From NCBI GenBank assembly GCA_025057135.1, contig JANWXY010000057.1:15136-79135 (forward strand): a stretch of DNA of 64,000 nt, in the 5' to 3' direction. Position 1 is the stretch's first letter; each line of letters starts with the position of its first letter. This stretch comes from Bacteroidia bacterium. Lineage in GTDB: Bacteria > Bacteroidota > Bacteroidia > SpSt-205. The position numbers were made by a program, and so were the translations under genes. Shown piece after piece: positions 2,389 to 46,926 of this stretch. Under the pieces are notes generated by a model. That model ran no database searches. It saw only the letters and a program-made list of their open reading frames with translations, and had not been told where the DNA came from.

Positions 2389-3552
2389 CTAAGCCGTAAG
2401 CAAAGCTTTTTCTGCTCGGGCTAAGCTCCGAGAAAGGACGATACGCTGCACTTCGCTTGTGCCCTCGTAGATTTCGGTGATTTTAGCGTCACGAAACAGG
2501 CGCTCCACATGGTACTCCTTGACATACCCATAGCCGCCATGAATCTGTACGGCCTCGGTGGTGACCCACATGGCAGTACGAGAAGCGAATAGTTTAGCCA
2601 TGGAGGCCAAAAACCCATAAGGCTGCTGTCTATCTTTTGCTTCTGCAGCTCTCAGACACATTAGACGGGCCGCTTCTACCTCAGTCCCCATGCGGGCAAG
2701 TTTGGCGGCGATAGCTTGATGCTTAGCAATGGGCACGCCGAATGCTTTTCTCTGTGTGCTATACCTAAGCGCCAGTTCAAAAGCCCCAGAAGCAATCCCC
2801 AGGGCCTGAGCGGCTATTCCTATTCGCCCACCATCCAGAGTTTTCATGGCAAACTTGAAGCCAAAACCTTCCTCTCCGATGCGATTTTCTACGGGTACCC
2901 GCACATCGTTGAATATCATCGTGTGAGTGTCCGAGCCACGAATACCAAGTTTGTCTTCCTTTTTGCCCACGATTACCCCGTCCCATTCACGCTCTACGAT
3001 GAATGCACTGATGCCCCGACTACCCAGACTATGGTCTGTTTGAGCTATTACTAAGTACAGGCCTGCTCTGCCGGCGTTTGTTATCCAGTTTTTAGTGCCA
3101 TTGAGGATGTAATGGTCACCTCGCCGTACGGCGGTCGTACGCTGCTGGGTGGCATCGCTCCCTGCTTCGGGTTCTGAGAGACAAAAGGCGCCTACAATCT
3201 CTCCCCGAGCTAGTTTAGGGAGATACTTCTGCTTTTGCTCTTCCGTACCGAAAGTTTCAATACCCCAGTTGACGAGAGAGTTTTGGACAGAGACGATTAC
3301 ACTGGCAGAAGCATCTACTTTGGAAAGCTCCTCCATCAAAAGGACATAGCTTATGGTGTCCATGCCCCCTCCGCCATATTCTGGGGAAACCATGAGTCCC
3401 ATGAAGCCCAATTCACCCATCCGGCGAACCAACTCAGGAGGAAAGGTCTGTGTCTCATCCCGTTCTATGACACCCGGCAGCAGCTCGGTCTGAGCAAAGT
3501 CCCGAGCTGCCTGACGAATCATCTCCTGCTCCGCTGTAAAGGAGAATTGCAT
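2389..3552 (-). CDS. acyl-CoA dehydrogenase (short/branched-chain type)
   Basis: 387 aa. ACAD motifs are present, including 'GAFCLSEPEAGSDA', 'YILNGTKNWITNAG' and a C-terminal catalytic-glutamate region 'IYEGTSEVQRIV'. Confidence 0.85.
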   Translation of the reverse strand: MQFSFTAEQEMIRQAARDFAQTELLPGVIERDETQTFPPELVRRMGELGFMGLMVSPEYGGGGMDTISYVLLMEELSKVDASASVIVSVQNSLVNWGIETFGTEEQKQKYLPKLARGEIVGAFCLSEPEAGSDATQQRTTAVRRGDHYILNGTKNWITNAGRAGLYLVIAQTDHSLGSRGISAFIVEREWDGVIVGKKEDKLGIRGSDTHTMIFNDVRVPVENRIGEEGFGFKFAMKTLDGGRIGIAAQALGIASGAFELALRYSTQRKAFGVPIAKHQAIAAKLARMGTEVEAARLMCLRAAEAKDRQQPYGFLASMAKLFASRTAMWVTTEAVQIHGGYGYVKEYHVERLFRDAKITEIYEGTSEVQRIVLSRSLARAEKALLTA

Positions 3553-3577
3553 ATGGCAAAGCTAACAAAAAAGCCCC

Positions 3578-4534
3578 TCAGGCCGAACGCTTCACAAACT
3601 GCTCTCTCTTATATAGCAAGCGATCCAAGGTGTGCCGGGAGATAATATACACAAAATACGGGGAGTGCCAGAGCCGCACATAATAGTGCAGGGCACTGCT
3701 CGAATGCGGATAGACGCTCCAGTGGTACTTTTTCCCTTTCCATAAAAACAGCTGAACCTCAGCTATGGTTGAAAGCCCCACCAGAGAGTCCGCCGAAGTC
3801 AGCTCATCCGCATAAAAAGGCCCTGAATATGCCATGAGATACTCAGCTACCGCGAAGGAATCTACCGGCTCTTCTGTGGCTAAACGCCAAGGAGCATTGG
3901 GCTGAGGGCGCTCTAAACGCCAGCTCTTCTCTGGCTCGCCTGTATAATCCACCTGTATAGCGTAGAGGTCTGCGACTCGGGCATCAAACATTTGATTGGA
4001 CTGCCAAACGCCAAGGTCAGGATAATACCGAGAGGTCAAATAGCCTTCCAAGCCTGGCAGAAAGACTTCATAGGGTTGGTCACTCCCAGGACGCAGCATG
4101 TAAGTAGCAAATTGGTCAGGCGTCGGTCCCCCTACGTAAAACTCCTCTTCTCTGCCATCGCGAAAACGCAGCGTAACCTCTATACGATGCTCTCGCAAAA
4201 AGGAAAGCACATTTTTCAGAGCATTCTGAGGCACAGGAGCTCGGGGCGTCTGCGCAACAAGTGTGCGCAGAAGGGTCTGTAATGGCTGCTCAAAGACAGG
4301 CAAAGTATCCCCGATGAGCCATCCTTTTGGGGTTCTGCGCAAATCTATGCGGCGAAAAATCGTGTCTGCGTGCTTCTCTACCAGGTGTATCTCAACAATG
4401 GCGCCTGTATCCGGAAAAGCGAATCGTTTTTCAGCTTCGGCTCTCCGGGCGGCTATCTGCCCTCCCCATATTACTACGCCGATAGCTACAAGCAGTACGA
4501 CTAATAGTGCAATAGATGCCCAAGAGACCTTCAT
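3578..4534 (-). CDS. membrane-anchored hypothetical protein (possibly a DUF4340-like partner of GldG)
   Basis: 318 aa with an N-terminal TM helix 'IALLVVLLVAIGVVIW'. Its 4-nt overlap with the upstream GldG-like gene suggests co-translation. No catalytic motif was recognised. Confidence 0.35.
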   Translation of the reverse strand: MKVSWASIALLVVLLVAIGVVIWGGQIAARRAEAEKRFAFPDTGAIVEIHLVEKHADTIFRRIDLRRTPKGWLIGDTLPVFEQPLQTLLRTLVAQTPRAPVPQNALKNVLSFLREHRIEVTLRFRDGREEEFYVGGPTPDQFATYMLRPGSDQPYEVFLPGLEGYLTSRYYPDLGVWQSNQMFDARVADLYAIQVDYTGEPEKSWRLERPQPNAPWRLATEEPVDSFAVAEYLMAYSGPFYADELTSADSLVGLSTIAEVQLFLWKGKKYHWSVYPHSSSALHYYVRLWHSPYFVYIISRHTLDRLLYKREQFVKRSA

Positions 4535-6222
4535 ACCAGCGATCGCCTGTATTTATGACGCCGCCAAAGGTATAGCCCCACACCAAAAACCACCATCACA
4601 ACTACGGGTAATCCCAAGTTAAACGCCTGTATAAGCAGGGGATTACGGCGCACAATATCCGGATTCAGTCGGCGCAGCTGCACACTCCTACTACGCACTT
4701 GAGTGAGGGTCGTTTCTCCTGTGAGGTAATCTATGCAGTTCAGTAGGAAGGTCAAATTGTCCAACGGAGTGTAGTCCGCAGCGCGCCCCTGCACCTCCGA
4801 GGGCAAAGCAAACTCTCCGTCAGTAATAAAAATGGCTTTGCCCGGAAGGCCAGATTCAGGTAGAAACCTCGCTGTGGGGGGATTGGGAGCATATGCATCC
4901 GTAGGTGGTTCTCTGTCTACGAATACCGAAGTAAATCGCCCTTCGCTCAGCACCGCCATTGGTCGGAAGCCCTTTCCTTTGAAGGTCTCAGGATTGGGAG
5001 GATTCTTGACTGTGAGGTTTATATCTATCATTTGCGTGCCCTTGACGGACCGGCTTATGGGAGAGCTAAGCGCTAAAATCGTGTGCTTAATCCCTGGGCG
5101 GGAAATAGTATCTACGCTCCCTGCGTATCGGTATAAAACAGCATCCACCGTGCGGGTAACGGGATGAGCAGGAAAGATATACACGATCGGATAATATAGC
5201 CATTTTTCTGCTCCCCAGACCGGACCGTCATAGTACCCCTTTATGAGCTCAATATATCCACAGGAGAAGTCTTGAACAAGGTCATATCCTGGCCGCCATC
5301 CCCAGCGGAAAAATAGATCATCTAAGTTTAGCTCACGCAGAAGTACCAGCGCACTCCCCTCCGATAAATTGATACGATGATGGTCTAAAAGCCAGAGCAA
5401 ACGCCCGCCCCGCAGAAGATACTGCTCCAACTCATACTTTTCCCGCTCGGTAAAGGCACTATCCGGTCCAATCACTACTATCGCCGCAAAGCCATCCCCT
5501 GAAAGTTTTTTCTGGAGGGTCTCAGGTAGGTAGGCTTTGGCAGGCGCGAGGGCTTGCCCTTCTCGAACGCGCACAGGCACCAAACGGTAGAACTTTCCCA
5601 ATTCAGCCTCTAACTGAGGCATCTGCGACAGGCTGTATTCCCCATGACCGCTCAGAAAGCCCAAAATTGGCTTACTACCGTGCGTAGCGATTTGGCGGAG
5701 GGCCGCAGCGATTTTGTATTCTACCTCCTGCTCAGCTTCTAATAGGTCTATTTCCCCAGTAGGACGAAAATGGCCTTTGACCAAATCCACCCAGATATCC
5801 TGCTGTCCCGCATGAATCGTCGCCACAGGATACATGTACTGACGGCGCGTCTCAGTCTGAGAAACCCGTACATTGATAGGTATCGGCTGGATGCCGTGCT
5901 GCTTGAAGAGGCGCAGAACCTGTGGATTTTTAGAGGGGTTGACAAATGTATAGTTGAAAGGCTTAGGAGCCACAGCGCGCATCTCTGCTAGCATAGTCTC
6001 CACAGCCCGTTTGTATCTTTGGATAGGATACGGAAAATCCCCCTCTAAATACACCGTCACATAGGTGCTCTGAGGCATTCGCTTGAGGATTTCCCGCGTC
6101 CCTTCGGAGAGGGTGTAGCGCTTTTCCTCCGTCAAATCTACTCGCAGAAAGTATCTCCCCCCCAGAAGGTATAGTAGTATTAGCGCGGCGACTAAAATGA
6201 GTAGCTGCAGGAGATTTTTCAT
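4531..6222 (-). CDS. gldG: GldG-like ABC-transporter auxiliary component (gliding-motility-associated)
   Basis: 563 aa with an N-terminal TM helix (LLILVAALILLYLL) and a C-terminal TM helix (LPVVVMVVFGVGLYLW). This size and topology are typical of GldG, and it overlaps the start of the upstream ABC-2 permease. Confidence 0.55.
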   Translation of the reverse strand: MKNLLQLLILVAALILLYLLGGRYFLRVDLTEEKRYTLSEGTREILKRMPQSTYVTVYLEGDFPYPIQRYKRAVETMLAEMRAVAPKPFNYTFVNPSKNPQVLRLFKQHGIQPIPINVRVSQTETRRQYMYPVATIHAGQQDIWVDLVKGHFRPTGEIDLLEAEQEVEYKIAAALRQIATHGSKPILGFLSGHGEYSLSQMPQLEAELGKFYRLVPVRVREGQALAPAKAYLPETLQKKLSGDGFAAIVVIGPDSAFTEREKYELEQYLLRGGRLLWLLDHHRINLSEGSALVLLRELNLDDLFFRWGWRPGYDLVQDFSCGYIELIKGYYDGPVWGAEKWLYYPIVYIFPAHPVTRTVDAVLYRYAGSVDTISRPGIKHTILALSSPISRSVKGTQMIDINLTVKNPPNPETFKGKGFRPMAVLSEGRFTSVFVDREPPTDAYAPNPPTARFLPESGLPGKAIFITDGEFALPSEVQGRAADYTPLDNLTFLLNCIDYLTGETTLTQVRSRSVQLRRLNPDIVRRNPLLIQAFNLGLPVVVMVVFGVGLYLWRRHKYRRSLV

Positions 6223-6950
6223 GGATGGCGACGACTGAGTTGAAAGTGCGCTAAACCAAGACTGAAAGCAATCACGCTCAGATAATATAAAATATCCCGG
6301 CTGTCTAAAACCCCCCGACTCAAGCTGCGGTAATGCTCCATCAAGCTAAGCTGAGCAAGCATTTCCTGAAAAAACCGCCCCACAGGGAGTTCTGAGGCAA
6401 ACTCAAACCCAATCAGCCATACAAAGCCCAATAGGAGCCCAAGCAAAAAGGCGATAATCGTATGCACAGTAAGCGTAGATGCCCATATACCCAGGGCGGA
6501 GAGGCTAAGTCCCAGAGCAAAAAGTCCAACGTACGCCCCCTGAATGGCTCCATGGTCTATATTTCCGCGAGGTTGCGCCAGCCAAGAAATGGAGATGTAA
6601 AATACCCCCGTAGGAACCAGCGCAAATCCAATCACCGCAGCCACAGCGAGATACTTTGCCAGAAGGATACCCCAGCGCGAGATGGGAGCAGTAGCTAATA
6701 GCTCATATGATCCCGTCCGAAACTCCTCCGAAAAACTCCGCATGGTGAGAGCGGGGGCTAAGAAGAGTAAAAACCACGGAGCTATACTAAAAAATGCATC
6801 CATTTCAGCTGCACCGGTTTGAATCACCCCACCAGAAAAAACCCACAAAAATAACCCCGTACCGACCAGAAATATAGCCCAGGTAAGATAGGCAATAAGC
6901 GAATGGAGAAGGGCAAAAACTTCTTTTCGCCAGAGGGCAAGCACGGGCAC
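6219..6950 (-). CDS. gldF: ABC-2 family permease, GldF-like
   Basis: 243 aa polytopic membrane protein (about 6 TM helices) of ABC-2 permease size. It sits immediately upstream of, and overlapping, the GldG-like gene. No cognate ATPase (gldA) is adjacent. Confidence 0.5.
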   Translation of the reverse strand: MPVLALWRKEVFALLHSLIAYLTWAIFLVGTGLFLWVFSGGVIQTGAAEMDAFFSIAPWFLLFLAPALTMRSFSEEFRTGSYELLATAPISRWGILLAKYLAVAAVIGFALVPTGVFYISISWLAQPRGNIDHGAIQGAYVGLFALGLSLSALGIWASTLTVHTIIAFLLGLLLGFVWLIGFEFASELPVGRFFQEMLAQLSLMEHYRSLSRGVLDSRDILYYLSVIAFSLGLAHFQLSRRHP

Positions 6951-6954
6951 AAAG

Positions 6955-8355
6955 TTATGCCCTGCCCGAAGAATGCCTTCGGCTCAGATACCTATCCGGC
7001 AAAAGAAGTACAAACCCACACAGAAACACCCCAAATCCCATCATCCCTCCCATCACCCCCTGAATACCCCTGAGCAAGATTTCAGGTGAAGCGGTGCCCT
7101 TGTCCATATTAGTCAGATACAGGATATTCACCACGGCGAGCCCAAGGGTAGAGCCTACCTGACGCATAAACTGTAAAGCGCTCGTGGCAGAACCAACACG
7201 AGTTTGAGGAATATCATTTTGCCCTACGACACTCAGTAGCGCCTGAAAAGGTCCGAGTAAAGAAGCTGCGCTCACCATCGCCAGCAGTAGCCATCCCATA
7301 GAAATCTGAGAAGGCAAAGCCACTCTCGCCACACCAAAAATCACCGTCAAAGCTATTCCGCAGATAAGCAGAATGGGCTTGTATCGCCCATGACGACTCA
7401 CCCAGGCTCCGACCGCCCCAGTACTAAAAACAGCCCCTACCGTGAATGCAAGGAGTAGTAGCCCGCTCTGCCTCGGAGAATACCCCAGTACTCCTTGAAG
7501 ATACAGCGGCAGAAAAGTCACGCCCGCCATAAATATCGCCCCGAAGAAAAAGCCCGCCAGAGCGGCATACCGAAAAGTCGGTATTTGGACAAGGCGAAGG
7601 TCAAACAGAGGAGCTGGATGAAACCTCTCAGCACGAATCCATACCCATAGCATAAGAAGGCTGCCCATGAAAAGCCCTATGCCCCACACAGGGGAACCTA
7701 ACCTTTCTGGACCCCAAAACGAAAACGCCAACAAGAGCGGAGCTGCCCACAAAGCCATGAGGAACGCTCCTTTGATGTCCATAGGCTCGCTCTCTAAAGT
7801 GCCATGGGCAGGGAGATAGCGGAAAACAAAGACGACCGCAAGAACCAGAAAAGGGAGATTTCCCCAGAATGCCCACCGCCAGCTGAGATTCTCGGCTATG
7901 ACCCCACCTATGACAGGCCCCAAAGCACCTGCCATGCCAAATAAAGCTCCAATCAGACCTGCCCAACGACTGCGCTCTCTTGGAGGAAAAAACCAAGCCA
8001 GCGTTGTAAATGCCAGCGAAAAAAGAGCCCCACCTCCCAACCCTTGGACAAAACGAAATGCTAACAACTGCGAAAAGTGAATGGCACTCCCACACAAAAA
8101 TGAACCCAGTCCAAAAAGGCTCAAAGCCCCAATCAAAACCTTCCGACGGGAGATAATCTCTGTAAGCCGACCCGCTACGGGCGCCGCAATCGTGCTCCCA
8201 AGTAAATATAAAGCGCCCACCCATCCATACCACGCCTCCCCACCAAGGTCTGCAAGGATACGCGGAAGGGCGGTAGCCGTAACAGTCTGATCCAGCGCAG
8301 CCAAGAAGAGGCCAATGAATACCCCCAGTAAAGTCAAACGCACCTCACGAGCCAT
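6955..8355 (-). CDS. MFS transporter, DHA2 (EmrB/QacA-like) drug:H+ antiporter family
   Basis: 466 aa with about 14 predicted TM helices. MFS signatures include 'GALDQTVTATALPRI' and 'RLTEIISRRKVL' (G-x-L-x-D-R-x-G-R-K-like loop). Confidence 0.8.
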   Translation of the reverse strand: MAREVRLTLLGVFIGLFLAALDQTVTATALPRILADLGGEAWYGWVGALYLLGSTIAAPVAGRLTEIISRRKVLIGALSLFGLGSFLCGSAIHFSQLLAFRFVQGLGGGALFSLAFTTLAWFFPPRERSRWAGLIGALFGMAGALGPVIGGVIAENLSWRWAFWGNLPFLVLAVVFVFRYLPAHGTLESEPMDIKGAFLMALWAAPLLLAFSFWGPERLGSPVWGIGLFMGSLLMLWVWIRAERFHPAPLFDLRLVQIPTFRYAALAGFFFGAIFMAGVTFLPLYLQGVLGYSPRQSGLLLLAFTVGAVFSTGAVGAWVSRHGRYKPILLICGIALTVIFGVARVALPSQISMGWLLLAMVSAASLLGPFQALLSVVGQNDIPQTRVGSATSALQFMRQVGSTLGLAVVNILYLTNMDKGTASPEILLRGIQGVMGGMMGFGVFLCGFVLLLPDRYLSRRHSSGRA

Positions 8356-20110: not shown

Positions 20111-21568
20111 ATGGAGCCTGTGCTTCTATGCACACCCAACTTTAGCGAAGGCCTGCGTGAAGAGGTTATCCAAGCTATATTGCAACCCATAAAGGCTACT
20201 CCCGGCGTAAAGCTGATGGTTGTAGATAAAGGAAGTACCGTGAATCGCACCGTAATAGCCTTTGGAGGAGAGCCCGAAGCGGTATTCAATGCGGCACGTT
20301 CAGCATACGAAGTGGCTTTGAAGCATATAGATATGCGTCACCACAGGGGAGTCCATCCACGCATAGGAGCGGTGGATGTATGCCCCTTCACTCCTTATAG
20401 AGGTGTGGAAAAAGCATGGCTGCTTCGGCGAGTGGAGAGTTTTGCCCAAGAAATAGGTGATACCTTTCGCCTACCGGTGTATTTATATGCTGAGTCAGCC
20501 CGCTCTCCCGAACGCCGCTCTCTCCCTAACATCCGAAAAGGTGGCTACGAAAAGCTGCCTGAGAAACTAAGGGACCCTTTTTGGTCCCCAGACTTCGGTC
20601 CTATAGCTGTCAATGCCCGGTCTGGGGCGACAGCCATAGGCGTCAGAGATTTCATCGCTGCATTTAATCTCACACTCAACACACGATCTGAGACGATAGG
20701 AAAACGCATAGCCGAATCTGTAAGAGAAAGTTCAGGGGGATTACCTAATGTGCAGGCGATTAGCTGGTTTTTACCCGAGGTAGGTTTCGTACAAGTGAGT
20801 CTCAACATCACTGACTTGCGAGCAACGCCGTTACATAAGGCTTTTGAAGCCGTAGAAGAAGCCGCAAGGCAGTTAGGCGCTCGAGTATCGGAAACTGAGA
20901 TTGTAGGCATTTTACCTGAATGGGCGCTTATAGATGCGGGACGCTACTTCGCTCAAAAAGCAGGAGAGTCTGTAGAGAAGTTTTCTCGTGATGAGCTTAT
21001 TCTCACTGCTATACGCTCTCTAATGCTCAAAGATTTTGACCCGGAGTCAAGATGTCCAGAGCGTGTTTTCGGAGAGGCTGTGGGAGGACAGGATTTAGGC
21101 GAGTTATCGCTCCGAGAGCTTCTCTGGCGCATGGCAGACAAGCAACAGCCAATAGCCCATGAAGTAGCGGTCGTTCTCCAAGTCGCTACTGCCCTTGGAT
21201 TTGCTGCACGAGCCGTAGCTGGACTGCCTGCCCGGCATGCCTTCGCTCATGCCGAGTTTGTTCAACTTTTGCAGGATACGCTTTTATTTTTGCAGGACTC
21301 TAAAATGAATATAGAAGCTCTGCGCACCTTGGGCAAAAAAGCGTTGAGGGGATTTGCCCTTCTCCGCCAAATCAGTGAGACTCTTTCTGCTGACCAAAAA
21401 GAGCAGCTTGTCCTACTTGGGCAGCTTTTTAGCTGTGCCGTTGATAGTTTGGCAGCCGCCCTTATCTCTCACCAAAGTAACAATCCTGAGATTGCACAAG
21501 AACGCCACGACATAGAGTTGCAGGGGCGATTTTTCCGAGAAGAAATATTCAAGCGCGTGCGCATATGA
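20111..21568 (+). CDS. ftcD: glutamate formimidoyltransferase (FtcD family), with alpha-helical C-terminal extension resembling a degenerate cyclodeaminase domain
   Basis: 485 aa. The N-terminus 'MEPVLLCTPNFSEGLREEVIQAI' is the hallmark formiminotransferase start. The C-terminal ~180 aa are all-alpha, but the PGGGS motif of FTCD_C was not seen. Confidence 0.65.
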   Translation: MEPVLLCTPNFSEGLREEVIQAILQPIKATPGVKLMVVDKGSTVNRTVIAFGGEPEAVFNAARSAYEVALKHIDMRHHRGVHPRIGAVDVCPFTPYRGVEKAWLLRRVESFAQEIGDTFRLPVYLYAESARSPERRSLPNIRKGGYEKLPEKLRDPFWSPDFGPIAVNARSGATAIGVRDFIAAFNLTLNTRSETIGKRIAESVRESSGGLPNVQAISWFLPEVGFVQVSLNITDLRATPLHKAFEAVEEAARQLGARVSETEIVGILPEWALIDAGRYFAQKAGESVEKFSRDELILTAIRSLMLKDFDPESRCPERVFGEAVGGQDLGELSLRELLWRMADKQQPIAHEVAVVLQVATALGFAARAVAGLPARHAFAHAEFVQLLQDTLLFLQDSKMNIEALRTLGKKALRGFALLRQISETLSADQKEQLVLLGQLFSCAVDSLAAALISHQSNNPEIAQERHDIELQGRFFREEIFKRVRI

Positions 21569-22602
21569 CCTTGACTCCATCAGCTATTGCCGAAATAGTA
21601 TCAGTAGAACGCATCGTAGGTGATGAGAGTAAGCCCTTGCGGGGGTTCGCAAGCCTCACTGAGGCGCATAACACGGACCTCTCATTTTTCTCAGACCCCA
21701 GATACGAAAATCATCTCTATACCACTAAGGCAGGGGCTGTGCTACTTCCTCTGGACTTTCAGGCAAAACGCCCTCTGCCATCTTACCTCACTCAGATTTA
21801 CGTCCGTCGCCCAGATCAGGCGTTCTACACTCTCGTACAGAAATATAAAGCTCCTCCCCTACCTGAGTGGGGGAGAGAGCCGAATAGCTTTATTCACCCT
21901 TCGGCGGAGATTCCAGAAGACACATATATTGGGGCATTTGCGTACATTGGGGAACGGGTAAAGATAGGATCGCAAGCTCGGATATTCCCCTTCGCATATG
22001 TGGGAGCAGAAGTGGAAATTGGCGAGGGTACCGTGGTCTACCCACATGCTGTCATCATGCCGAGGACTAAAATCGGTAGCTGGTGCATCATCCATCCCGG
22101 GGCTGTGATTGGCGCAGATGGATTTGGATTTTACAAAGGTGATACGCGTCTCTATGAAAGAATCCCGCAGATCGGGCGCGTCGTAATTGAAGATGAGGTA
22201 GAGGTTGGAGCCAATACCTGCGTGGATCGCGCCACACTTGGAGAGACACGCTTAGGTAAAGGCGTCAAGTTAGACAACCTTATCCAAATCGCTCATAATG
22301 TCCAGATAGGACCTCATACAGCCATAGCAGCTCAGACAGGTATCGCTGGCAGCACCACCATCGGAGCCTACTGCCGCTTAGGTGGTCAGGTCGGTATTGC
22401 GGATCATTTGAGCATCGCTGAAGGGAGCTCCATAGCAGCCCAGAGTGGCGTTTCGCGCTCTATTACCACCCCAGGCAAGTCTTGGCGCGGCGCCCCAGCC
22501 CAAGAAGTGCGCCAGCAGCTCCTCATGGAAGCCCTAATGCGGCGATTACCTGAGCTGTATCCAAAGCTCCGAGAGATTGAAAAAATCATTCGGCATCCCT
22601 AA
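21565..22602 (+). CDS. lpxD: UDP-3-O-(3-hydroxyacyl)glucosamine N-acyltransferase
   Basis: 345 aa. N-terminal LpxD domain followed by left-handed beta-helix hexapeptide repeats (multiple [LIV]-G-x-x-x-x-I). Confidence 0.85.
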   Translation: MTLTPSAIAEIVSVERIVGDESKPLRGFASLTEAHNTDLSFFSDPRYENHLYTTKAGAVLLPLDFQAKRPLPSYLTQIYVRRPDQAFYTLVQKYKAPPLPEWGREPNSFIHPSAEIPEDTYIGAFAYIGERVKIGSQARIFPFAYVGAEVEIGEGTVVYPHAVIMPRTKIGSWCIIHPGAVIGADGFGFYKGDTRLYERIPQIGRVVIEDEVEVGANTCVDRATLGETRLGKGVKLDNLIQIAHNVQIGPHTAIAAQTGIAGSTTIGAYCRLGGQVGIADHLSIAEGSSIAAQSGVSRSITTPGKSWRGAPAQEVRQQLLMEALMRRLPELYPKLREIEKIIRHP

Positions 22603-22605
22603 CCT

Positions 22606-24048
22606 ATGTTTCAGAAACAGCACACTCTGCGAGAGTCGCTGACTTTTGAAGGGACAGGACTCCATACGGGAGAGAGCGTACGCGTACATCTGACCCCTGC
22701 TCCAGAAAACACTGGTTATGTCTTCATCCGAATGGATACTCCGACCCCCGTTGAAATCCCAGCTCGTGTAGAACATGTGGTTGATCTAATGCGCTCCACC
22801 ACGCTGGGTAAAGAGAATATACGCGTGCATACCGTAGAACATCTGCTCGCTGCTCTCATGGGTACAGGAGTCTCCAACGCTAAAATAGAAGTCTGGGGGC
22901 CAGAGATTCCCATCATGGATGGTAGTGCTCTGCCCTTCGTGGAGAGTATTCAACAAGTAGGGCTCCAACCTCAGAAGGAACCCCAGCATTTCTACCACAT
23001 AGAAGAGCCTGTACATTATCAAAATAAAGAACGCGGCGTTGATATAGCGGCTTTCCCATTTGATGGCTTCCGAGCCACTGTAATCGTGGACTATAACTCT
23101 CAAGTGCTCGGCATTCAGCCTGCTACCTTGGTCCGGTGGGAAGACTTCGCTAAAGACATCGCCCCCGCTCGTACATTTTGCCTCCTATATGAGCTTGAAG
23201 AGCTGCATCGGCTCGGGCTCATCCGAGGCGGTACGCTTGAAAATGCCATAGTAATCGTAGACCGTCAATATTCCCCAGAGGAGCTTCATCGGATAGGCTC
23301 CCTATTCGGATACCCTAATGTACAGGTCGTAGAAGAAGGGGTTTTGAATAATACCCCACTTCGCTTTGACAACGAGCCAGCGCGTCATAAACTTCTGGAC
23401 TTGATAGGTGACTTAGCTCTTTTAGGAGCGCCTCTCCGAGGTCAGATAGTCGCCATGCGCCCAGGTCATGCAGCAAACATAGAGTTTATCAGGACCCTGC
23501 ATAAGTTTATCCAAAAGCGGCGCATCATCCAACGCTTCCAAAAAACCCCCACACAAGGCGGAGTGGTCTTTGATATTCACGCCATCCGACAAATTCTCCC
23601 CCACCGATACCCATTCCTACTGGTGGATCGCATCACACACTTTAGTGAAGATAGCATCATCGGCATAAAAAATGTAACCATCAATGAGCCTTTTTTCGTA
23701 GGACATTTTGAGGACAATCCCATCATGCCAGGCGTGCTCATCTTAGAAGCGATGGCTCAGGTAGGCGGCATTTTGTTTCTAAACATCGTTGAAAATCCAC
23801 AGGATTATTGGGTTTATTTTCTAGCAATAGATGGGGCACGATTCAAAAAGCCTGTCGTCCCCGGGGATCAGCTCGTTTTCAAGTTAGACATGCTCCAACT
23901 TCGGCGAGGTATCTGTAAAATGGCCGGTAAAGCTTATGTGGATGAAAAACTGGTCTGCGAAGCCGAATTGACGGCAAGTCTCGTACCCAAAAGTTCTCTA
24001 AAGAGCGCTTATGCCGCCAAAGCTCCATCTGGAGAGAGTCGGTCTTAG
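22606..24048 (+). CDS. lpxC/fabZ: bifunctional UDP-3-O-acyl-N-acetylglucosamine deacetylase / 3-hydroxyacyl-ACP dehydratase (LpxC/FabZ fusion)
   Basis: 480 aa. N-terminal LpxC motifs ('[16 protein letters not shown]', '[10 protein letters not shown]', '[12 protein letters not shown]'). C-terminal FabZ hot-dog fold ('[11 protein letters not shown]', '[20 protein letters not shown]'). This fusion is typical of Bacteroidota. Confidence 0.92.
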
Positions 24049-24601
24049 ATATGAAAGGCACTTCGTGTTCAGAGACGTAACCTTTTCTGCTCGGGGAGGT
24101 GAGAGTTGGGCTATCACCGGACCCAACGGCATCGGAAAAAGCAGTTTGCTGTCTATAATCGCTAAATACCGCATCCCATCAGAAGGGAAACTGACTTATG
24201 AGCCCGCATCAGTTGCGTTTGCCTGGCAGTCTCCGCATGTCCATCCCCCCGCAGACCTTCACGTACGCGATATAGTGCGAGATTGGCAGCGATACAAACC
24301 ATCGGAAATTAATTCTGACTTTTACGACCGATGGAAACTACCCGCCCACAAACCACTGCACATGCTCTCCTCCGGTATGCGTCAGCGGCTCTTGGTCGGG
24401 CTAACTCTCAGCCTCACAACAGGGATTATCCTCTTAGACGAGCCGACAGCTCATTTAGACGAGGACTACCGAAAGCAAATTCAATCAGAAATCGTATCTC
24501 GGATGACAAATCCTGAGCTATTGGTAGTGTGTGCTACAAATGATCCTAACGAAGCCGCTCTCTTCCCAAGAATTCTAAACTTGAAAGAGTATGCCGCATG
24601 A
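24011..24601 (+). CDS. short ABC-transporter ATP-binding protein (orphan; no adjacent permease)
   Basis: 196 aa with Walker A 'GPNGIGKSS', ABC signature 'LSSGMRQR' and Walker B 'ILLDEPT'. It overlaps the 3' end of lpxC/fabZ by 38 nt and occupies the position where lpxA is usually found. Confidence 0.6.
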   Translation: MPPKLHLERVGLRYERHFVFRDVTFSARGGESWAITGPNGIGKSSLLSIIAKYRIPSEGKLTYEPASVAFAWQSPHVHPPADLHVRDIVRDWQRYKPSEINSDFYDRWKLPAHKPLHMLSSGMRQRLLVGLTLSLTTGIILLDEPTAHLDEDYRKQIQSEIVSRMTNPELLVVCATNDPNEAALFPRILNLKEYAA

Positions 24602-25517
24602 AAAAGCACATACCCATCCAACCCATGCTACCAGCAAACGTACCACAATCCTATGGCAAGGAGTGAAGCACTTTTACCTCATCACTTGGGCAGGTAAGGG
24701 GATTCTCTGGGTCTCCCTGCTCCTGGCACAATCTCCTGAGCCACTTCAGATTTTGAACACTATGATAGAACGCACGGGCACCATTCAGGGGCTCAGGTAT
24801 GAACTCAAAAAATACGAACGTATCCAAGGTAAGCTCATATTAGAGCAAATGCGCTTCAAACTTCGGAGGCAGCCCTTCGCCGTTTATGGCTATCAAATCA
24901 GTCCCCGTAAAGGCGTTGAGGTTTTATTTCCCGCAGAGCCTGGTAGCACACGACTCCTCGTCAAACCCAACTCCTTTCCTTATGTATCCATCACCCTTGA
25001 TCCCTATGGGGATGTGATCTTAGAAAATCAACATCAAACCGTAAAGGCTGCAGGATATGACCAAGCCCGAAACCTTCTCATCACAGCCCGAGAGAAATAC
25101 AGAAGTGACTTACCCCGCCTCGTCAAGTATGAGGGAACGCTCATCTGGGATGGAAGAAAGTGTCATAAACTGACCCTCCAGCCGCCAGCTTACCATATTC
25201 AAACTTACACTGTGAAAAGTGGCGACAACCTTTTCTCCATCGCAGAAAAGTTTCATGTAGGTTGGTACAAGATTATGGAACTCAACGGTATAAAGTCACC
25301 CAACGCTACACTCAAAATAGGACAAACCCTTCAGATACCCTCTGATTACGGCAAGGTGATCCGGCTCATCATAGATGCCGAACGGTATATTCCCTTAGTC
25401 TTGGAGGTGGAGGATGAGAAAGGGCTTTATGAAAGGTACGAATACTACAAAGTAGAGGTAGACCCTCCCCTCACGAACAAGGACTTTTCCAGAGACAATC
25501 CAGAATATAACTTCTAA
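24591..25517 (+). CDS. LysM-domain protein (predicted periplasmic/peptidoglycan-binding)
   Basis: 308 aa with an N-terminal hydrophobic segment. The C-terminal LysM motif is 'YTVKSGDNLFSIAEKFHVGWYKIMELNGIKSPNATLKIGQTLQIP'. Confidence 0.6.
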   Translation: MPHEKAHTHPTHATSKRTTILWQGVKHFYLITWAGKGILWVSLLLAQSPEPLQILNTMIERTGTIQGLRYELKKYERIQGKLILEQMRFKLRRQPFAVYGYQISPRKGVEVLFPAEPGSTRLLVKPNSFPYVSITLDPYGDVILENQHQTVKAAGYDQARNLLITAREKYRSDLPRLVKYEGTLIWDGRKCHKLTLQPPAYHIQTYTVKSGDNLFSIAEKFHVGWYKIMELNGIKSPNATLKIGQTLQIPSDYGKVIRLIIDAERYIPLVLEVEDEKGLYERYEYYKVEVDPPLTNKDFSRDNPEYNF

Positions 25518-25519
25518 CT

Positions 25520-26365
25520 ATGCTATCCATAGACTTAAGCGGTAAAGTAATCGTCGTAACGGGCGGTGGCACTGGCCTGGGACGAGCTATGACAGAAACT
25601 TTTGTAAAGTGTGGGGCCCGAGTCGCCATATGCGGCCGCCGCAGCCATATCGTGGAAGAAGCCGCTCAATCCATAGGTCCAGCTGTACGACCCTACACCT
25701 GCGATGTTCGCAGTTGGGAAAGTGTGGATACTTTTTTGAAGCAAGTCATTCTTGACTTGGGCACGATAGACGCCGTAGTCAATAATGCCGCAGGTAACTT
25801 TCTCTATGCCTCAGAAAGGCTTTCTCCCAAAGGCTTTCGGGCAGTGGTGGATATTGTACTAATGGGAACTTTCCACATGAGTCGTTGGGCTGGCGCTTAC
25901 TGGATAGACAATCGCCGCCCCGGCCATATTCTCAATATCGTCACGACTTACACTGACACTGGATGTGCATTTGTGCTTCCCTCAGCTGCTGCCAAAGCAG
26001 GCGTACAGGCCCTTACTCTATCCTTAGCCTATGAATGGGCTCCGTACGGCATACGCGCAAATGCCATAGCTCCAGGGCCTTTTCCGACACAGGGAGCCTG
26101 GTCCCGCCTCATGCCCGGAAGCGATTTTGAGGAAAAATATCTCCAAAGGTTACCTACACGCCGATATGGCAACTACGCAGAACTCGGCGCTCTCGCAGCC
26201 TTTCTGCTTTCTGATTTAGCTCCCTATATAACAGGGGCTGTAATACCGATTGATGGGGCAGAGCGGCTCCAGGGAGCAATGTTCAACTATCTCGCCCAAA
26301 TCACAGACCGAGAAACCCTCTACCATGTATTTGAGATGATGCGACAAGCCGCTCGCTCAGAATGA
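25520..26365 (+). CDS. SDR-family oxidoreductase (2,4-dienoyl-CoA reductase-like)
   Basis: 281 aa. Motifs 'VTGGGTGLGRAM' (TGxxxGxG), 'NNAAGNF' and catalytic 'S...AAKAGV' (the Y-to-A substitution is typical of DECR-like SDRs). Confidence 0.75.
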   Translation: MLSIDLSGKVIVVTGGGTGLGRAMTETFVKCGARVAICGRRSHIVEEAAQSIGPAVRPYTCDVRSWESVDTFLKQVILDLGTIDAVVNNAAGNFLYASERLSPKGFRAVVDIVLMGTFHMSRWAGAYWIDNRRPGHILNIVTTYTDTGCAFVLPSAAAKAGVQALTLSLAYEWAPYGIRANAIAPGPFPTQGAWSRLMPGSDFEEKYLQRLPTRRYGNYAELGALAAFLLSDLAPYITGAVIPIDGAERLQGAMFNYLAQITDRETLYHVFEMMRQAARSE

Positions 26366-26423
26366 CTCAAAAGCCTCTTCATGCTGAGATTCATATATCA
26401 GAACTTCTGAGTAGCTTCGCTTC

Positions 26424-27647
26424 GTGGATAGACGAACCTTCTTGGAGAGCATTTTGGCCTTCAACTTCTTGCCAGCTTTGACCCCTGCTCTGGAAAATCG
26501 TCCCGACTCAGCAGAGGAGGAAGAAGATTTCTGGCGGAGTATTCGGGGGGAGTTTATGCTGCATCCTTCTATCATCAACCTCAATAATGGGGGCGTCTCC
26601 CCCCATCCCCGCAGTGTCGTGGAAGCGCTTTTTCGCATGGAGCTGACAGCAAATGAAGCCCCTGCTTATGTGATGTGGCGGATCCAGGATCAAAAGGAAC
26701 CTATTCGCCAGCGATTAGCGGCTATCGGCGGTGCAGACCCCGAAGAAATCGCCATAGTTCGCAACTCTACCGAAGCTCTGGAAACCGTAATCTTCGGTCT
26801 CAATCTCAAAGCCGGAGACGAAGTCATAGCGGCTGAGAGTGATTATCCCAGCATGATAGCGGCATGGAAGCAGCGGGAAGCCCGAGACGGTATAAAAGTA
26901 CGCTGGTTACGCCTGCCTCTCCCCTCAGAGGATGAAGATAAGCTGGTCGCTCCGTACTTAGAGGCTATCACTCCCCGCACTCGTGTAATTCACCTCACTC
27001 ATCTCATCAATTGGACTGGACAGATAGTTCCCGTGGAAAAAGTCACCGCTGAGGCTCGGAAAAGGGGGATTTTTACCATAGTGGATGCGGCACATAGCTA
27101 TGCTCACATACCACTGGATTTTCATGCTATGGGATGCGATGCGGCTGGCGTCAGCCTCCACAAGTGGCTATGCGCTCCTTTCGGAACTGGGCTTCTGTAT
27201 GTGAAAAAAGAGCGCATTCGGGACATCTGGCCGCTATTTGCCCCGGCAGCGGATAGAAGAGCGGATGATATCCGAAAGTTTGAACATCTCGGCACGCGAT
27301 CCATTCCGACTGAACAAGCCATAGCCGCAGCCATAGACTTTCATGAACGCATCGGTTCCCAACGCAAGTTTGAACGGCTCAAAAAATTGCGCCAGTACTG
27401 GCTGTCCAAAGCCATCCAACTCCCAAAAATCAAATCCCTGACTCCCGACAAGCTCGCGGGTGCCCTCGCCACAATACAGGTAGACGGCTGGTCTCCCCAA
27501 AAGTTAGCCGACCACCTTTTAGAGAAGCACCGCATTTTCGTAGTAGGTATAGACTGGGCTGGCATGCAAGGCATTCGCGTTACTCCGCACGTCTATACGA
27601 CATTTGAAGAGCTGGACAAACTGGTAGATGCTCTGAGAGCCGTATAG
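26424..27647 (+). CDS. aminotransferase class-V-fold PLP-dependent enzyme with twin-arginine (Tat) signal peptide
   Basis: 407 aa. N-terminus 'MDRRTFLESILAFNFLPALTPALE' matches the Tat consensus S/T-R-R-x-F-L. The class-V fold has the PLP-lysine region 'GVSLHKWLCAPFGTGLLY' (S-x-H-K). Confidence 0.7.
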   Translation: MDRRTFLESILAFNFLPALTPALENRPDSAEEEEDFWRSIRGEFMLHPSIINLNNGGVSPHPRSVVEALFRMELTANEAPAYVMWRIQDQKEPIRQRLAAIGGADPEEIAIVRNSTEALETVIFGLNLKAGDEVIAAESDYPSMIAAWKQREARDGIKVRWLRLPLPSEDEDKLVAPYLEAITPRTRVIHLTHLINWTGQIVPVEKVTAEARKRGIFTIVDAAHSYAHIPLDFHAMGCDAAGVSLHKWLCAPFGTGLLYVKKERIRDIWPLFAPAADRRADDIRKFEHLGTRSIPTEQAIAAAIDFHERIGSQRKFERLKKLRQYWLSKAIQLPKIKSLTPDKLAGALATIQVDGWSPQKLADHLLEKHRIFVVGIDWAGMQGIRVTPHVYTTFEELDKLVDALRAV

Positions 27648-27649
27648 AT

Positions 27650-28363
27650 TTGCGGTCTATGTGGAAAAATCAGTATCGTCTCATCTGGATAGCAGATGAG
27701 GGGACGAGAAGAATAGAGGTACGCCTTCCTCTGTGGAGCTGGGTTGCGGCTCTGATTACCTTTTTATTGATACTATGGGCGATATTCGCTTATACTCCTC
27801 TGCGCTACACTGTACCAGGGTATCCTACCCGAAGCTTCCGACAGAAGTACAACCAGCTCGTCCAGCGGCTACAAGCGATAGAACAGAAGCTCGCCCAGCA
27901 GACAGCAACCATAGAAGAGCTGCGCACGCTGAACGCCGTCATGCGGGCTAACCCTCAACCTCCAACCTTACCCCTCATCCCTACCTTACAATCCGGGCAG
28001 TATATGCTCCCTGCAGAGGGTCAAATATCCCGACGCTTTCAACCCTCCAGGGACCACTGGGGACTGGATATCACCTGCAACGCAGGAGATCCAGTTTTGG
28101 CTATCGCCGAGGGCGTGGTGATTTTTTCGGAGTACTCTTATGAATCGGGATATGTGATTGGTATTCAACACCCAAATGGACTTGTTTCGCTATACAAGCA
28201 CAACTCCCGCCTCATGCGAAGGGTGGGTGAAAAAGTACGTGGCGGGGATGTAATAGCTCTGGCTGGGGGGCTTGGAGCTTATTCTACTGCACCACACTTA
28301 CACATAGAGACATGGTTAGGAAGCTTTCCAGTAGACCCCCTTAAGCTACTTGCGTATGAGTGA
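27650..28363 (+). CDS. M23 family metallopeptidase (LytM-like)
   Basis: 237 aa with an N-terminal TM anchor. M23 motifs are 'HWGLDITCNAGDPVLAIAEGVV' (HxxxD) and 'HLHIE' (HxH). Confidence 0.8.
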   Translation: MRSMWKNQYRLIWIADEGTRRIEVRLPLWSWVAALITFLLILWAIFAYTPLRYTVPGYPTRSFRQKYNQLVQRLQAIEQKLAQQTATIEELRTLNAVMRANPQPPTLPLIPTLQSGQYMLPAEGQISRRFQPSRDHWGLDITCNAGDPVLAIAEGVVIFSEYSYESGYVIGIQHPNGLVSLYKHNSRLMRRVGEKVRGGDVIALAGGLGAYSTAPHLHIETWLGSFPVDPLKLLAYE

Positions 28364-28456: not shown

Positions 28457-29197
28457 CTAACTCTGCGGTAGATACCTGGCTGTCAGGCTTGCCCAAGTTT
28501 GAGCCTCCTCGGGCCTTTGAAGTAAAGCCCTACCCACCACCAAGAGAGCGGGATATAGAAGATTGGTAGAAGGGAGCTGAGCTCCTTGTGCGCCTAAACC
28601 CGGCATAAGAAGCCAATCCGTAGGGCGATTTTGTCTCAGCTCCAAAAGTTCGGCATCCGTATGATGAGCAGCCCATACCCACCCAATATTCGCAGGTAGC
28701 GTTTTGGGCTCCTCTAATAAAATCTGTCGCCAAATAACCCTCTGCCAAGCCGGCGCCTCTGTCGTCCGCAATAGAATGAAAGCCCACTTTCCCTGATAAG
28801 ACCAAAAAGGCTCTAAGGCATGCCAGCCCATATAAGGGTGGAGGGTTACAGCATCAAACCCCAAGTCTTCATACAGAGCCTGGGCGTAGTAGCGATTCGT
28901 GTGGGCGATGTCACCGCGTTTCGCATCGGCTATACTTAGGGTGTCGGTGGGCAGTAAGGACCTGAGCCGTTTCATCAGTGTCCATCCGGCTGCTCCCCAT
29001 CGTTCGTAAAAGGCCGTATTGAGCTTGTAAGCTATCGCATAGGGAGCCGTGTATTCAATGATTGAATGCAGCCGAGCCTCTGCGCGCTCTGGGGATGAGC
29101 CATCCTCATACCCAAGAGCCGCTTCTGAAGGGTCTAAAGCCACACACAGCAGGCTATTCTTGCCCCGAGCAGCCTGTTCTAACTCCTGAGGAGTCAC
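28457..29197 (-). CDS. pyrF: orotidine-5'-phosphate decarboxylase, type 2
   Basis: 246 aa. 'LLCVALDP' and 'IADAKRGDIAHTN' match the conserved type-2 OMPdecase motifs (D-x-K-R-x-D-I-x-x-T). Overall it is collinear with actinobacterial-type PyrF. Confidence 0.75.
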   Translation of the reverse strand: MTPQELEQAARGKNSLLCVALDPSEAALGYEDGSSPERAEARLHSIIEYTAPYAIAYKLNTAFYERWGAAGWTLMKRLRSLLPTDTLSIADAKRGDIAHTNRYYAQALYEDLGFDAVTLHPYMGWHALEPFWSYQGKWAFILLRTTEAPAWQRVIWRQILLEEPKTLPANIGWVWAAHHTDAELLELRQNRPTDWLLMPGLGAQGAQLPSTNLLYPALLVVGRALLQRPEEAQTWASLTARYLPQS

Positions 29198-29823
29198 CTT
29201 AGGTCTATGACTTTGACCCCCGGATGCTTTGTACTATCAAACACAAACATGGAGTCTGGTATCGGCTGAGTATCGTAGCTCTTGAGTTCGTACTCTACGA
29301 TGGTGCCATCTCTATTAGATATGCGCATTCGCTGGGGAAGCTGAGACTGTGCGTCTATCCACACCTCCACACGGAAATAATCCGTACCATCACTAATCGG
29401 GAAAAGAGATATTTTGTGAGTCGTCCGGCCCTTATATGTCTCCGTTTTATCCAGCCGAACCTTCATGTCTTCCTCATAAATCCGAAAAATCCGCTCTATG
29501 CTGAAGCCTTCTTTGGGGTCGTACTTTGAGACATTTACTTCATTTTCTTTCTTGAGGAACTGCCAGACGGTCTTTCCATCTGACAGAACTACGATGTCTC
29601 CAATGTCCACGGAAAACTTATTCTGTTTGGGGCGATAACGGAAGGTACCGCTGCGAGCGATGCGCTTCTGGGTCGTATCCGCCCTATTTTCAACCATGTA
29701 AGAAAACACCACAGTCATATGATCCATGGCTTTCAGCTTTTTTCTAGAACTGCGTATGAGATTATCTGCTTTTGGGTCCACCTGTGCCCACACAAGGCTT
29801 AGGCAGAGTATGCTGCGATACAT
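29194..29823 (-). CDS. lolA: LolA-like outer-membrane lipoprotein carrier protein
   Basis: 209 aa with signal peptide 'MYRSILCLSLVWAQ'. Size and beta-rich composition are typical of LolA. It is translationally coupled to pyrF by a 4-nt overlap. Confidence 0.55.
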   Translation of the reverse strand: MYRSILCLSLVWAQVDPKADNLIRSSRKKLKAMDHMTVVFSYMVENRADTTQKRIARSGTFRYRPKQNKFSVDIGDIVVLSDGKTVWQFLKKENEVNVSKYDPKEGFSIERIFRIYEEDMKVRLDKTETYKGRTTHKISLFPISDGTDYFRVEVWIDAQSQLPQRMRISNRDGTIVEYELKSYDTQPIPDSMFVFDSTKHPGVKVIDLR

Positions 29824-46176: not shown

Positions 46177-46926
46177 ATGAAACAGCTATTTTTGCCAGGT
46201 ATGGACCGCAGGAGTTTTCTGATGACCTTTGCAGCTTTGGCTCTGGGTGGTGTTAGTTGGGCTCGTCGCCGCACTAAACCTTATGTATGGATGGAAGCTT
46301 CCCTGACAGGCAGCTACCCTTATACCCTTCCCGACCTACCCTACCCCTACGAAGCCATAGAGCCTGCCATAGATACTCAGACGATGAAGGTTCATCATCA
46401 AGGACACCATGCTACCTATGTGAATAACCTCAATAAAGCCCTCGAAGAGCTCCCCTCCTTTCAAACGCAACCCTTAGAAGACTTGCTCAGTAATTTAGAG
46501 AAGGTACCCATGCCACAGCGTACAGCTATCAGGAATAATGGGGGGGGACACTGGAATCATACATTCTGGTGGAAGCTCCTCGCTCCTAAACCACAAGAAC
46601 CCTCCGTAAGCTTACAGAAACGCATCGCCTTAGAATTTGAGAGCTGGACTTCATTTCGGGCACAGCTATTAGAAGCGGCGGTAAAACACTTCGGTTCTGG
46701 CTGGGCATGGGTCGTACTGACACCAGCAGGCAAACTCCGTATCGTTACCACGCCTAATCAAGACAATCCTCTCATGCCCTACTCAGACGTGCGTGGCAAA
46801 CCAATTTTAGGCATAGATGTCTGGGAGCATGCATACTATCTGAAGTACCAAAACCGCCGTTCAGAGTACCTCGCAAATCTCTGGCAAAGACTAAACTGGG
46901 AATATGTAGAGACGCTGCTGGGATAG
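46177..46926 (+). CDS. sod: Fe/Mn-superoxide dismutase with Tat signal peptide (predicted periplasmic)
   Basis: 249 aa. Tat motif 'MDRRSFLMTFAALALGG'. SOD motifs 'HHQGHHATYVNNLN' and 'DVWEHAYYLKYQNRR'. Confidence 0.85.
   Translation: MKQLFLPGMDRRSFLMTFAALALGGVSWARRRTKPYVWMEASLTGSYPYTLPDLPYPYEAIEPAIDTQTMKVHHQGHHATYVNNLNKALEELPSFQTQPLEDLLSNLEKVPMPQRTAIRNNGGGHWNHTFWWKLLAPKPQEPSVSLQKRIALEFESWTSFRAQLLEAAVKHFGSGWAWVVLTPAGKLRIVTTPNQDNPLMPYSDVRGKPILGIDVWEHAYYLKYQNRRSEYLANLWQRLNWEYVETLLG

Follow-up and report, generated by a model that had tools for sequence, protein, structure and literature searches.

The 64,000-nucleotide stretch analysed here, referred to as the window, comes from a Bacteroidia bacterium (GenBank assembly GCA_025057135.1, contig JANWXY010000057.1, positions 15,136 to 79,135 of the forward strand). 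It contains four consecutive genes encoding a LysM-containing DUF1571 protein, a short-chain dehydrogenase/reductase (SDR), a class-V pyridoxal 5′-phosphate (PLP) enzyme with a predicted twin-arginine translocation (Tat) signal, and an M23 metallopeptidase. An initial annotation read them as a periplasmic cluster linking amino-acid modification to cell-wall remodelling. Our analysis indicates that the region is not a pathway: with a probability of roughly 0.72, two gene blocks that have nothing to do with each other have come to lie side by side in this lineage, within a packed co-directional run in which the PLP enzyme is the one unusual gene. Block A comprises a SpoIIE-type sensor, a formiminotransferase, LpxD, an LpxC/FabZ fusion, a small ATP-binding cassette (ABC) ATPase, the LolA-fold/LysM protein and, as its last gene, the SDR. 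Block B begins with the PLP enzyme and continues with the M23 endopeptidase, pyrF, lolA, an outer-membrane protein (OMP) and the EF-Tu/ribosomal-protein region. The relevant features of the window are as follows.

24011..24601, plus strand: small ABC-type ATPase (Pfam ABC_tran, E 5e-17; the NCBI product is shorter, 178 aa; no permease nearby)
24591..25517, plus strand: DUF1571 protein with an inserted LysM domain (Pfam, E 3e-22 and 6e-17)
25520..26365, plus strand: SDR (Pfam adh_short, E 1.5e-40; adh_short_C2)
26366..26423, no strand: 58-nt spacer between the SDR and PLP genes, the junction of two synteny blocks
26424..26495, plus strand: predicted Tat signal of the PLP enzyme, reading M-D-R-R-T-F-L-E and then a mildly hydrophobic h-region, SILAFNFLPALTPAL
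26424..27647, plus strand: class-V (fold-type I) PLP enzyme (Aminotran_5, E 2e-45; Schiff-base Lys247 encoded at 27162-27164)
27650..28363, plus strand: membrane-anchored M23 metallopeptidase (Peptidase_M23, E 6e-24; NCBI start ATG 27659)

The initial description of four consecutive, co-directional genes with these domains was confirmed, both in the coordinates of the open reading frames (24591-25517, 25520-26365, 26424-27647 and 27650-28363, all on the plus strand) and in the Pfam assignments. The genes are separated by 2, 58 and 2 nt, the last gap becoming 11 nt if the NCBI start of the M23 gene is used.

The neighbourhoods of 80 genome loci encoding relatives of the PLP enzyme were compared, with neighbours matched at E 1e-8 and 50% coverage. 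All four genes occur together at a single one of these loci (L001, 86% identity), in addition to the source assemblies; the region is identical to contigs of the ‘Bacteroidia bacterium’ metagenome-assembled genomes GCA_026419235.1 and GCA_033583795.1. Two further loci (L002 and L003, 80-81% identity) keep the order PLP-M23-pyrF-lolA-OMP-EF-Tu, and the remaining loci, about 75 in number and 45-76% identical, have none of the window's neighbours at these cut-offs. With the threshold relaxed to E 1e-3, all that came in addition were weak partial LysM and M23 matches in L038 and, in L055, a distant match resembling EF-Tu. Among the loci, the PLP and M23 genes are adjacent in L001-L003 only, and the adjacency is gone at PLP-enzyme identities of 76% or less.

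Orthologues of the DUF1571/LysM protein at 77, 66 and 49% identity are found at loci L081, L082 and L084, each time within a triad of ABC ATPase, DUF1571/LysM protein and SDR. This triad, at 24011-26365 (+) in the window, is kept down to a LysM-protein identity of 49%; it follows LpxD-LpxC/FabZ in L081 and L082 and a tRNA-synthetase gene in L084. At these three loci the next genes after the triad encode either initiation factor IF3 or a PHP-domain protein with FtsK, and are never the PLP or M23 gene. DUF1571/LysM genes at 30-36% identity occur by themselves, with no ABC, SDR or PLP neighbour. Nor does a PLP gene adjoin the M23 orthologues at 71, 60 and 53% identity, and the M23 gene of L088 still lies near the OMP-EF-Tu-SecE-NusG block, without a PLP gene. 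Two genomes show the components on separate contigs: in GCA_026414975.1, whose PLP enzyme is 80% identical, Block A is found on contig 1 (L081) and the PLP-M23 pair on contig 2 (L003), while in GCA_025062295.1 the PLP gene (L004, contig 50) and the M23 gene (L089, contig 1) are apart.

The position of the junction can be read from a comparison with the sister genome GCA_026414975.1. Directly 5′ of the PLP gene, L003 carries genes for a major facilitator superfamily (MFS) transporter, GldF, GldG and a 318-aa protein (1074-5847, +). In the window the orthologues of this set occupy 3578-8355 (-), in reversed orientation and with a displacement of about 18 kb. From this placement of the genes that lie upstream of PLP in L003, it follows that an inversion with respect to the sister genome has one of its ends in the 58-nt spacer between the SDR and PLP genes. 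The apparent cluster is a recent junction of two synteny blocks. Conservation of the four-gene neighbourhood, which had been proposed as a check on a shared function, was not found, as the genes belong to two independent synteny blocks and are neighbours in related genomes only in L001 and the source assemblies. The idea of a functional module for the cell wall or periplasm is therefore not borne out; its connection to peptidoglycan comes only from an adjacency that proves young and short-lived when genomes are compared.

A feature of the region that is conserved beyond this lineage is the N-terminal signal of the PLP enzyme. The open reading frame opens with GTG 26424, the earliest start available past an in-frame stop, and the N-terminus reads MDRRTFLESILAFNFLPALTPALENRPDSAEEEEDFW (MDRRTFLE). 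Across an alignment of 45 homologues (50-86% identity) neither R3 nor R4 varies, and 43 of the sequences have F6. An arginine pair followed by any residue and two hydrophobic ones (RR-x-[hydrophobic]-[hydrophobic]) occurs within the first 40 residues of 103 of the 120 best database homologues, and most of the others are plainly incomplete at the N-terminus or were given a wrong start. At the level of the genome loci, 74 of 78 have the RR with a start codon no more than 11 codons upstream, and in 73 this codon is ATG. The motif persists in 94 of the 130 full-length representatives of 50%-identity clusters, which are 33-50% identical to the query.

Further from the query, RK or KR replaces RR at the same N-terminal position in some members, and a minority are without any signal (the group noted being P0232, P0236, P0248, P0277, P0295, P0311, P0352, P0359 and P0360). 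The family seems to comprise both exported and cytoplasmic branches.

The invariant W37 and the nearly invariant E34 stand upstream of the next methionine, M45, which excludes a start at that position or further downstream. Downstream starts, whether at M45 or at the TTG codons 7-19, were rejected, as the RR is invariant and the E34-W37 block conserved. The objection that the RR might not belong to the true N-terminus is thereby answered. The h-region is mildly hydrophobic (Kyte-Doolittle 1.5) and AlphaFold2 has low confidence at residues 16-26, both of which are consistent with a Tat signal peptide. The N-terminal consensus of the family, (S/N/D)RRxFL, fits the Tat motif SRRxFLK (PMC3712460). 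An (S/T)RRxFLK-like motif with a mildly hydrophobic h-region, as expected of a Tat substrate, is found at the true N-terminus. The initial annotation had noted a clear twin-arginine signal on this protein, and in this it was right; because the signal is conserved across the family, Tat export of the folded, PLP-loaded enzyme to the periplasm is likely.

Another protein of the window has an N-terminus of the same kind. A Fe/Mn superoxide dismutase encoded at 46177-46926 (+) (Pfam Sod_Fe_N/C; NCBIfam SodA-like, 223 bits) carries an MDRRSFL-like N-terminal extension, MKQLFLPGMDRRSFLMTFAALALGGVSWA, making it a candidate Tat-exported periplasmic superoxide dismutase. A second predicted protein with an RR signal suggests that the organism uses Tat-type signals.

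The PLP enzyme is a class-V protein of fold-type I: it matches Pfam PF00266 above the gathering score and has both the S-x-H-K Schiff-base lysine (SLHK247) and the aspartate that binds the pyridine nitrogen. Lys247, D221 and R385 are invariant in the 45-homologue alignment, R385 aligning with the conserved arginine that binds the substrate carboxylate in SufS-type enzymes. NCBIfam class calls were judged against the curated cut-offs, and all scores of the PLP enzyme lie far below them; the best are the SufS subfamily TIGR01979 with 136.3 bits (cut-off 475) and PvdN, NF051467, with 130.1 bits (cut-off 650). Among solved structures the best sequence match is PvdN of Pseudomonas aeruginosa (5i90, E 3e-32), aligned from the DRRTFL signal to the C-terminus, with SufS and the cystine lyase C-DES ranking after it. 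By Foldseek, the predicted model aligns with the SufS/CsdA group at a template-modelling (TM) score of about 0.8.

The active site departs from both relatives. In the alignment, Ile371 takes the place of Cys361 of Bacillus subtilis SufS, which lies in the HHCAQ loop; this loop is seven residues shorter in the PLP enzyme. Every one of the 45 homologues has I, L or V at position 371 and none has cysteine there, and the only cysteines of the protein are C238 and C250. Without the catalytic cysteine no enzyme persulfide can form, so that sulfur transfer of the SufS type is excluded. A housekeeping desulfurase was rejected on the same alignment. Of the candidate activities first suggested, desulfuration of the SufS type must accordingly be dropped, while the objection that the protein could be a cytoplasmic housekeeping desulfurase fails for the same missing cysteine and for a SufS score below the cut-off. 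An invariant D140-Y141-P142 aligns with the E-H-H segment of SufS and the E-H-Y segment of PvdN; the tyrosine in place of a histidine above the cofactor argues against a plain copy of the PvdN or C-DES mechanism. After the PLP-binding aspartate, where SufS has glutamine, both the PLP enzyme (His224) and PvdN have histidine.

The D-Y and H224 signature is kept in most of 150 more distant representatives. The family as a whole numbers at least 858 50%-identity clusters (E<=1e-30) and is found mainly in Bacteroidota, with named hosts among Bacteroidia, Saprospiraceae, Chitinophagaceae, Fulvivirgaceae and Spirosoma. Going by these sequence comparisons, the PLP enzyme is a member of a distinct, large, mostly Tat-signal-bearing and uncharacterised family that is distantly related to PvdN. 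A literature search on Tat-exported PLP enzymes of Bacteroidota, and on class-V aminotransferases with a twin-arginine signal, found no publication on this family.

Taken together with the conserved start, a course of events for this protein may be proposed. It would be translated from GTG 26424, a start backed by homologue conservation, would bind PLP at Lys247 and would fold in the cytoplasm. The Tat translocase would then carry it across the inner membrane by means of the RR signal, whose conservation is observed and whose use for export is suggested by analogy with PvdN. In the periplasm it would act on a substrate with a free α-amino group and α-carboxylate, as the invariant Arg385 suggests. 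The reaction would be neither desulfuration of the SufS type nor demonstrably that of PvdN, given the absent cysteine and the invariant tyrosine of D-Y-P. The most likely class is a β-lyase, transaminase or decarboxylation-type reaction, whose substrate would be a periplasmic amino acid or a peptide-linked one.

Several observations weigh against the picture of an exported enzyme placed by chance beside unrelated genes. The PLP-M23 pair, 2-11 nt apart, is kept in at least four assemblies of the clade (L001-L003 and the source), and the two may be co-expressed and hence functionally linked in this lineage. In other lineages the PLP gene has heterogeneous neighbours, including genes for cyanophycin synthetase, cyanophycinase, an amino-acid permease, glutamine synthetase III and hydrolases of the S10 and beta-lactamase families. 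With regard to export, a scan for Tat machinery genes with a TatA-like motif found none within the 64-kb window, and the c-region of the PLP enzyme is acidic, with no classical AxA cleavage site evident. In the absence of an evident AxA site the enzyme could remain membrane-anchored; and because Tat genes were not found in the 64 kb examined, we infer export rather than observe it directly.

The neighbours elsewhere hint weakly at amino-acid or nitrogen metabolism, each association being confined to one lineage. Further examples, judged by N-terminal sequence alone, are an arginine-biosynthesis-like and an S9-peptidase-like gene. In Chitinophagaceae the PLP gene adjoins cyanophycin genes and in some loci also an APC-type amino-acid permease. 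At many of these loci it lies between a divergent gene for cyanophycin synthetase and one for cyanophycinase, with tyrS, PorV and PorU next in several. Loci of the cyanophycin type are L013, L017, L019, L021-L023, L026, L027, L030, L040, L044, L050, L057, L059, L060, L062-L064, L067 and L068. The cyanophycin neighbours were rejected as firm evidence of function: they form one family-level block (cphA, PLP, optionally the permease and cphB, then tyrS, PorV and PorU), and many members of that block lack cph genes. A bioinformatics paper on cyanophycin makes no mention of such a PLP enzyme.

The M23 protein has an N-terminal transmembrane segment (residues ~28-50, Kyte-Doolittle 2.8) followed by a coiled-coil-like linker, so that its initial description as membrane-anchored holds. 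The motif set is complete, with H136xxxD140 (H136WGLD), Y182xH184 (YKH184) and H216xH218 (H216LH218), and the Pfam match reaches 84.6 bits. From these motifs it is probably an active, ordinary peptidoglycan endopeptidase. In view of the gap of 2-11 nt, the M23 and PLP genes of this organism probably share a transcript.

The least improbable of the alternatives, and still an unlikely one, is that these two proteins alone are coupled in this thermophilic Bacteroidia lineage, for example with the endopeptidase releasing the peptides or amino acids that the PLP enzyme then uses. The short gap, the conservation of the pair in L001, L002, L003 and the source assemblies, and the predicted extracytoplasmic location of both products would agree with this. 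So would the substrate with free α-amino and α-carboxylate groups suggested by Arg385; uncross-linked meso-diaminopimelate and free amino acids present such groups. However, within the same clade the two genes are no longer together at PLP identities of 76% or below and at an M23 identity of 71%, L088 keeps its M23 gene near the OMP-EF-Tu block without PLP, and the PLP family, in its 858 clusters, is very widespread among unrelated neighbours. On the reading that we favour, the tight packing of the PLP and M23 genes is a matter of genome compaction and not a conserved functional link.

A second alternative concerns the signal itself: the RR might not be a working Tat signal, the PLP enzyme then being cytoplasmic or exported by the Sec route. 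The GTG start codon, the acidic c-region with no clear AxA, the absence of tat genes from the window and the distant relatives with no signal could all be read in this way. We nevertheless consider it improbable, since the RR is invariant in the 45 homologues and is preceded by ATG in 73 of the 74 loci that bear it. The family consensus also fits the SRRxFLK motif, the mild hydrophobicity of the h-region is typical for Tat, and the E34-W37 block lies upstream of the next methionine. In addition, the homologue PvdN, whose DRRTFL signal aligns with that of the PLP enzyme, is an experimentally shown Tat substrate.

About equally improbable is a tailoring role of the PvdN type, in which a terminal glutamate of a secreted peptide, siderophore or other metabolite would undergo oxidative decarboxylation in the periplasm. 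The two proteins do share the histidine in place of the SufS glutamine, as well as the missing cysteine. The similarity is nonetheless distant, with an identity of 23% and a score of 130 bits where the cut-off is 650, the histidine of the PvdN E-H-Y segment is a tyrosine here, and neither the window nor the 80 related loci contain nonribosomal peptide synthetase (NRPS), pvdM/O or siderophore genes. An assignment as a PvdN orthologue was rejected on the score, the identity and the D-Y-P in place of E-H-Y.

A broader and likewise improbable proposal is that the Bacteroidota-wide, Tat-bearing ‘D-Y-P’ family carries out an undescribed periplasmic amino-acid transformation, different both from desulfuration and from the PvdN reaction, and that in this thermophilic lineage it is co-expressed with the M23 endopeptidase because peptides or amino acids derived from peptidoglycan are its substrates.

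The remaining two genes bear on the most inclusive alternative. In the first protein, Pfam DUF1571 (79 bits) matches in two stretches around the LysM domain at residues 206-250. Because homologues, at 275-300 aa, cover only about 88% of the long open reading frame, the true start is probably GTG 24663, which gives a signal-peptide-like N-terminus, MKHFYLITWAGKGILWVSLLLAQ-S, with the putative cleavage placed before the serine. The AlphaFold2 model (predicted local distance difference test score 88.7) is matched by Foldseek to LolA, LolA3, LprG, RseB and DUF1329 with probability 1.00 and TM scores up to 0.67. Homologues are labelled ‘outer membrane lipoprotein-sorting protein’ by JGI; a canonical LolA1 is encoded separately at 29194-29823. 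Judging from the model, the DUF1571/LysM protein looks like an exported, peptidoglycan-tethered binder of lipid or lipoprotein, and not like a cell-wall enzyme. The placement of a LysM domain inside a barrel of the LolA superfamily (24663-25517, +) is an unusual architecture; about 50 homologues with a DUF1571 match were recovered, nearly all of them also matching LysM. A literature search on DUF1571 found no paper bearing on this family.

The SDR has the classical motifs, with the TGGGTGLG Rossmann motif at residue 14 and NAAG at 89. It resembles 2,4-dienoyl-CoA reductase in sequence, its best NCBIfam match being PRK07677 with 239 bits, as against a cut-off of 318. Inspection of sequence and hydropathy revealed no signal peptide or N-terminal hydrophobic segment, so the protein is predicted to be cytoplasmic, and the four-gene cluster is not wholly periplasmic. 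The initial view of a periplasmic cluster thus fails, the SDR being the one product of the four not predicted to be extracytoplasmic. The triad of ABC ATPase, LolA-fold LysM protein and SDR could represent a module related to envelope lipids.

That all four products form one periplasmic module modifying amino acids or stem peptides during cell-wall remodelling is hardly credible. In its favour are the shared direction and short gaps of the genes, the predicted extracytoplasmic location of three of the four products, the association of LysM and M23 domains with peptidoglycan, and the recurrence of the arrangement in L001 and two source-like assemblies. Against it, the order is seen only at 86% identity or above, the SDR-PLP spacer is a breakpoint relative to a genome whose PLP enzyme is 80% identical, the SDR has no export signal, and the LysM protein resembles a LolA-fold binder rather than an enzyme, with the ABC ATPase and SDR as its conserved partners and not PLP or M23. 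The synteny data already contradict this model.

The four genes are the tail of a longer, tightly packed, co-directional run that starts at 18566 (18.5-28.4 kb) and includes, upstream of them, a PAS/SpoIIE-type sensor, a formiminotransferase, LpxD, an LpxC-FabZ fusion and the small ABC ATPase. Downstream of the M23 gene lie pyrF and lolA, both encoded on the opposite strand, then an outer-membrane beta-barrel protein and the region of EF-Tu, SecE, NusG, ribosomal proteins and RNA polymerase. In Bacteroidota, lpxD and lpxC-fabZ usually have lpxA next; in the window (21565-24601, +) they are followed by the ABC ATPase. Scans of 18.0-30.8 kb for sigma-70 promoters and intrinsic terminators gave counts at chance level, which are uninformative on operon structure; Bacteroidota promoters lie outside the models of the tool. 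The SDR-PLP spacer contains a perfect 6-bp inverted repeat, TCAGAA-C-TTCTGA (26395-26407, +), about 17 nt 5′ of the GTG. The repeat is too tight for a hairpin and could be a protein-binding site or a product of chance.

Periplasmic PLP chemistry is rare, and the enzyme encoded in the window stands for a far larger, uncharacterised family that has the export design of PvdN. Finding the substrate of this family would extend what is known of cofactor-dependent metabolism outside the cytoplasm.

To our knowledge, PvdN and PtaA are the only documented Tat-exported PLP enzymes. PvdN, a periplasmic pyoverdine-tailoring enzyme of Pseudomonas (PDB 5i90/5hh9; NF051467), is closest to the enzyme described here. 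Both are fold-type I class-V proteins with a DRRTFL RR signal, a Schiff-base lysine and a carboxylate-binding arginine, both lack the desulfurase cysteine, and both have histidine at the position of the SufS glutamine. They differ in identity (23%), in score (130 against 650 bits), in the E-H-Y segment, which is D-Y-P here, and in phylum, the present enzyme being from Bacteroidota. No pyoverdine, pvdMNO or NRPS siderophore genes were found in the gene map of the window or at the 80 related loci. PvdN is exported by the Tat system folded with its PLP, and the active-site lysine and bound PLP are needed for transport competence (PMC6206403). The second Tat-exported, cofactor-loaded enzyme, periplasmic transaminase A (PtaA) of pseudomonads, is a ‘normal’ transaminase (PMC6206403); it is likened here by description only, as a PLP enzyme with Tat export, which for the present protein is predicted.

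The group-II desulfurases SufS and CsdA (TIGR01979) share the fold, the PLP lysine, the aspartate and the arginine, and give the best NCBIfam score. Against this, the score is 136 bits for a cut-off of 475, the cysteine is replaced by Ile371 and His-His by Tyr-Pro, no SufE, SufU or SufBCD genes neighbour the PLP gene, and SufS and CsdA are cytoplasmic whereas export is predicted here. The L-cystine C-S lyase C-DES of Synechocystis (PDB 1elq), also of the SufS-like subgroup, acts without an enzyme persulfide cysteine; unlike the present enzyme, it is cytoplasmic and has no Tat signal. For the DUF1571/LysM protein the comparison is with the LolA/LprG/RseB superfamily, with which it shares the predicted fold (Foldseek probability 1.00) and from which it differs in the LysM domain inserted in the barrel, with 10-13% identity and TM scores of 0.34-0.67 to solved members. 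Periplasmic PLP chemistry by way of the Tat system is thus an established, though rare, principle, and what differs here is a family with an active-site signature of its own.

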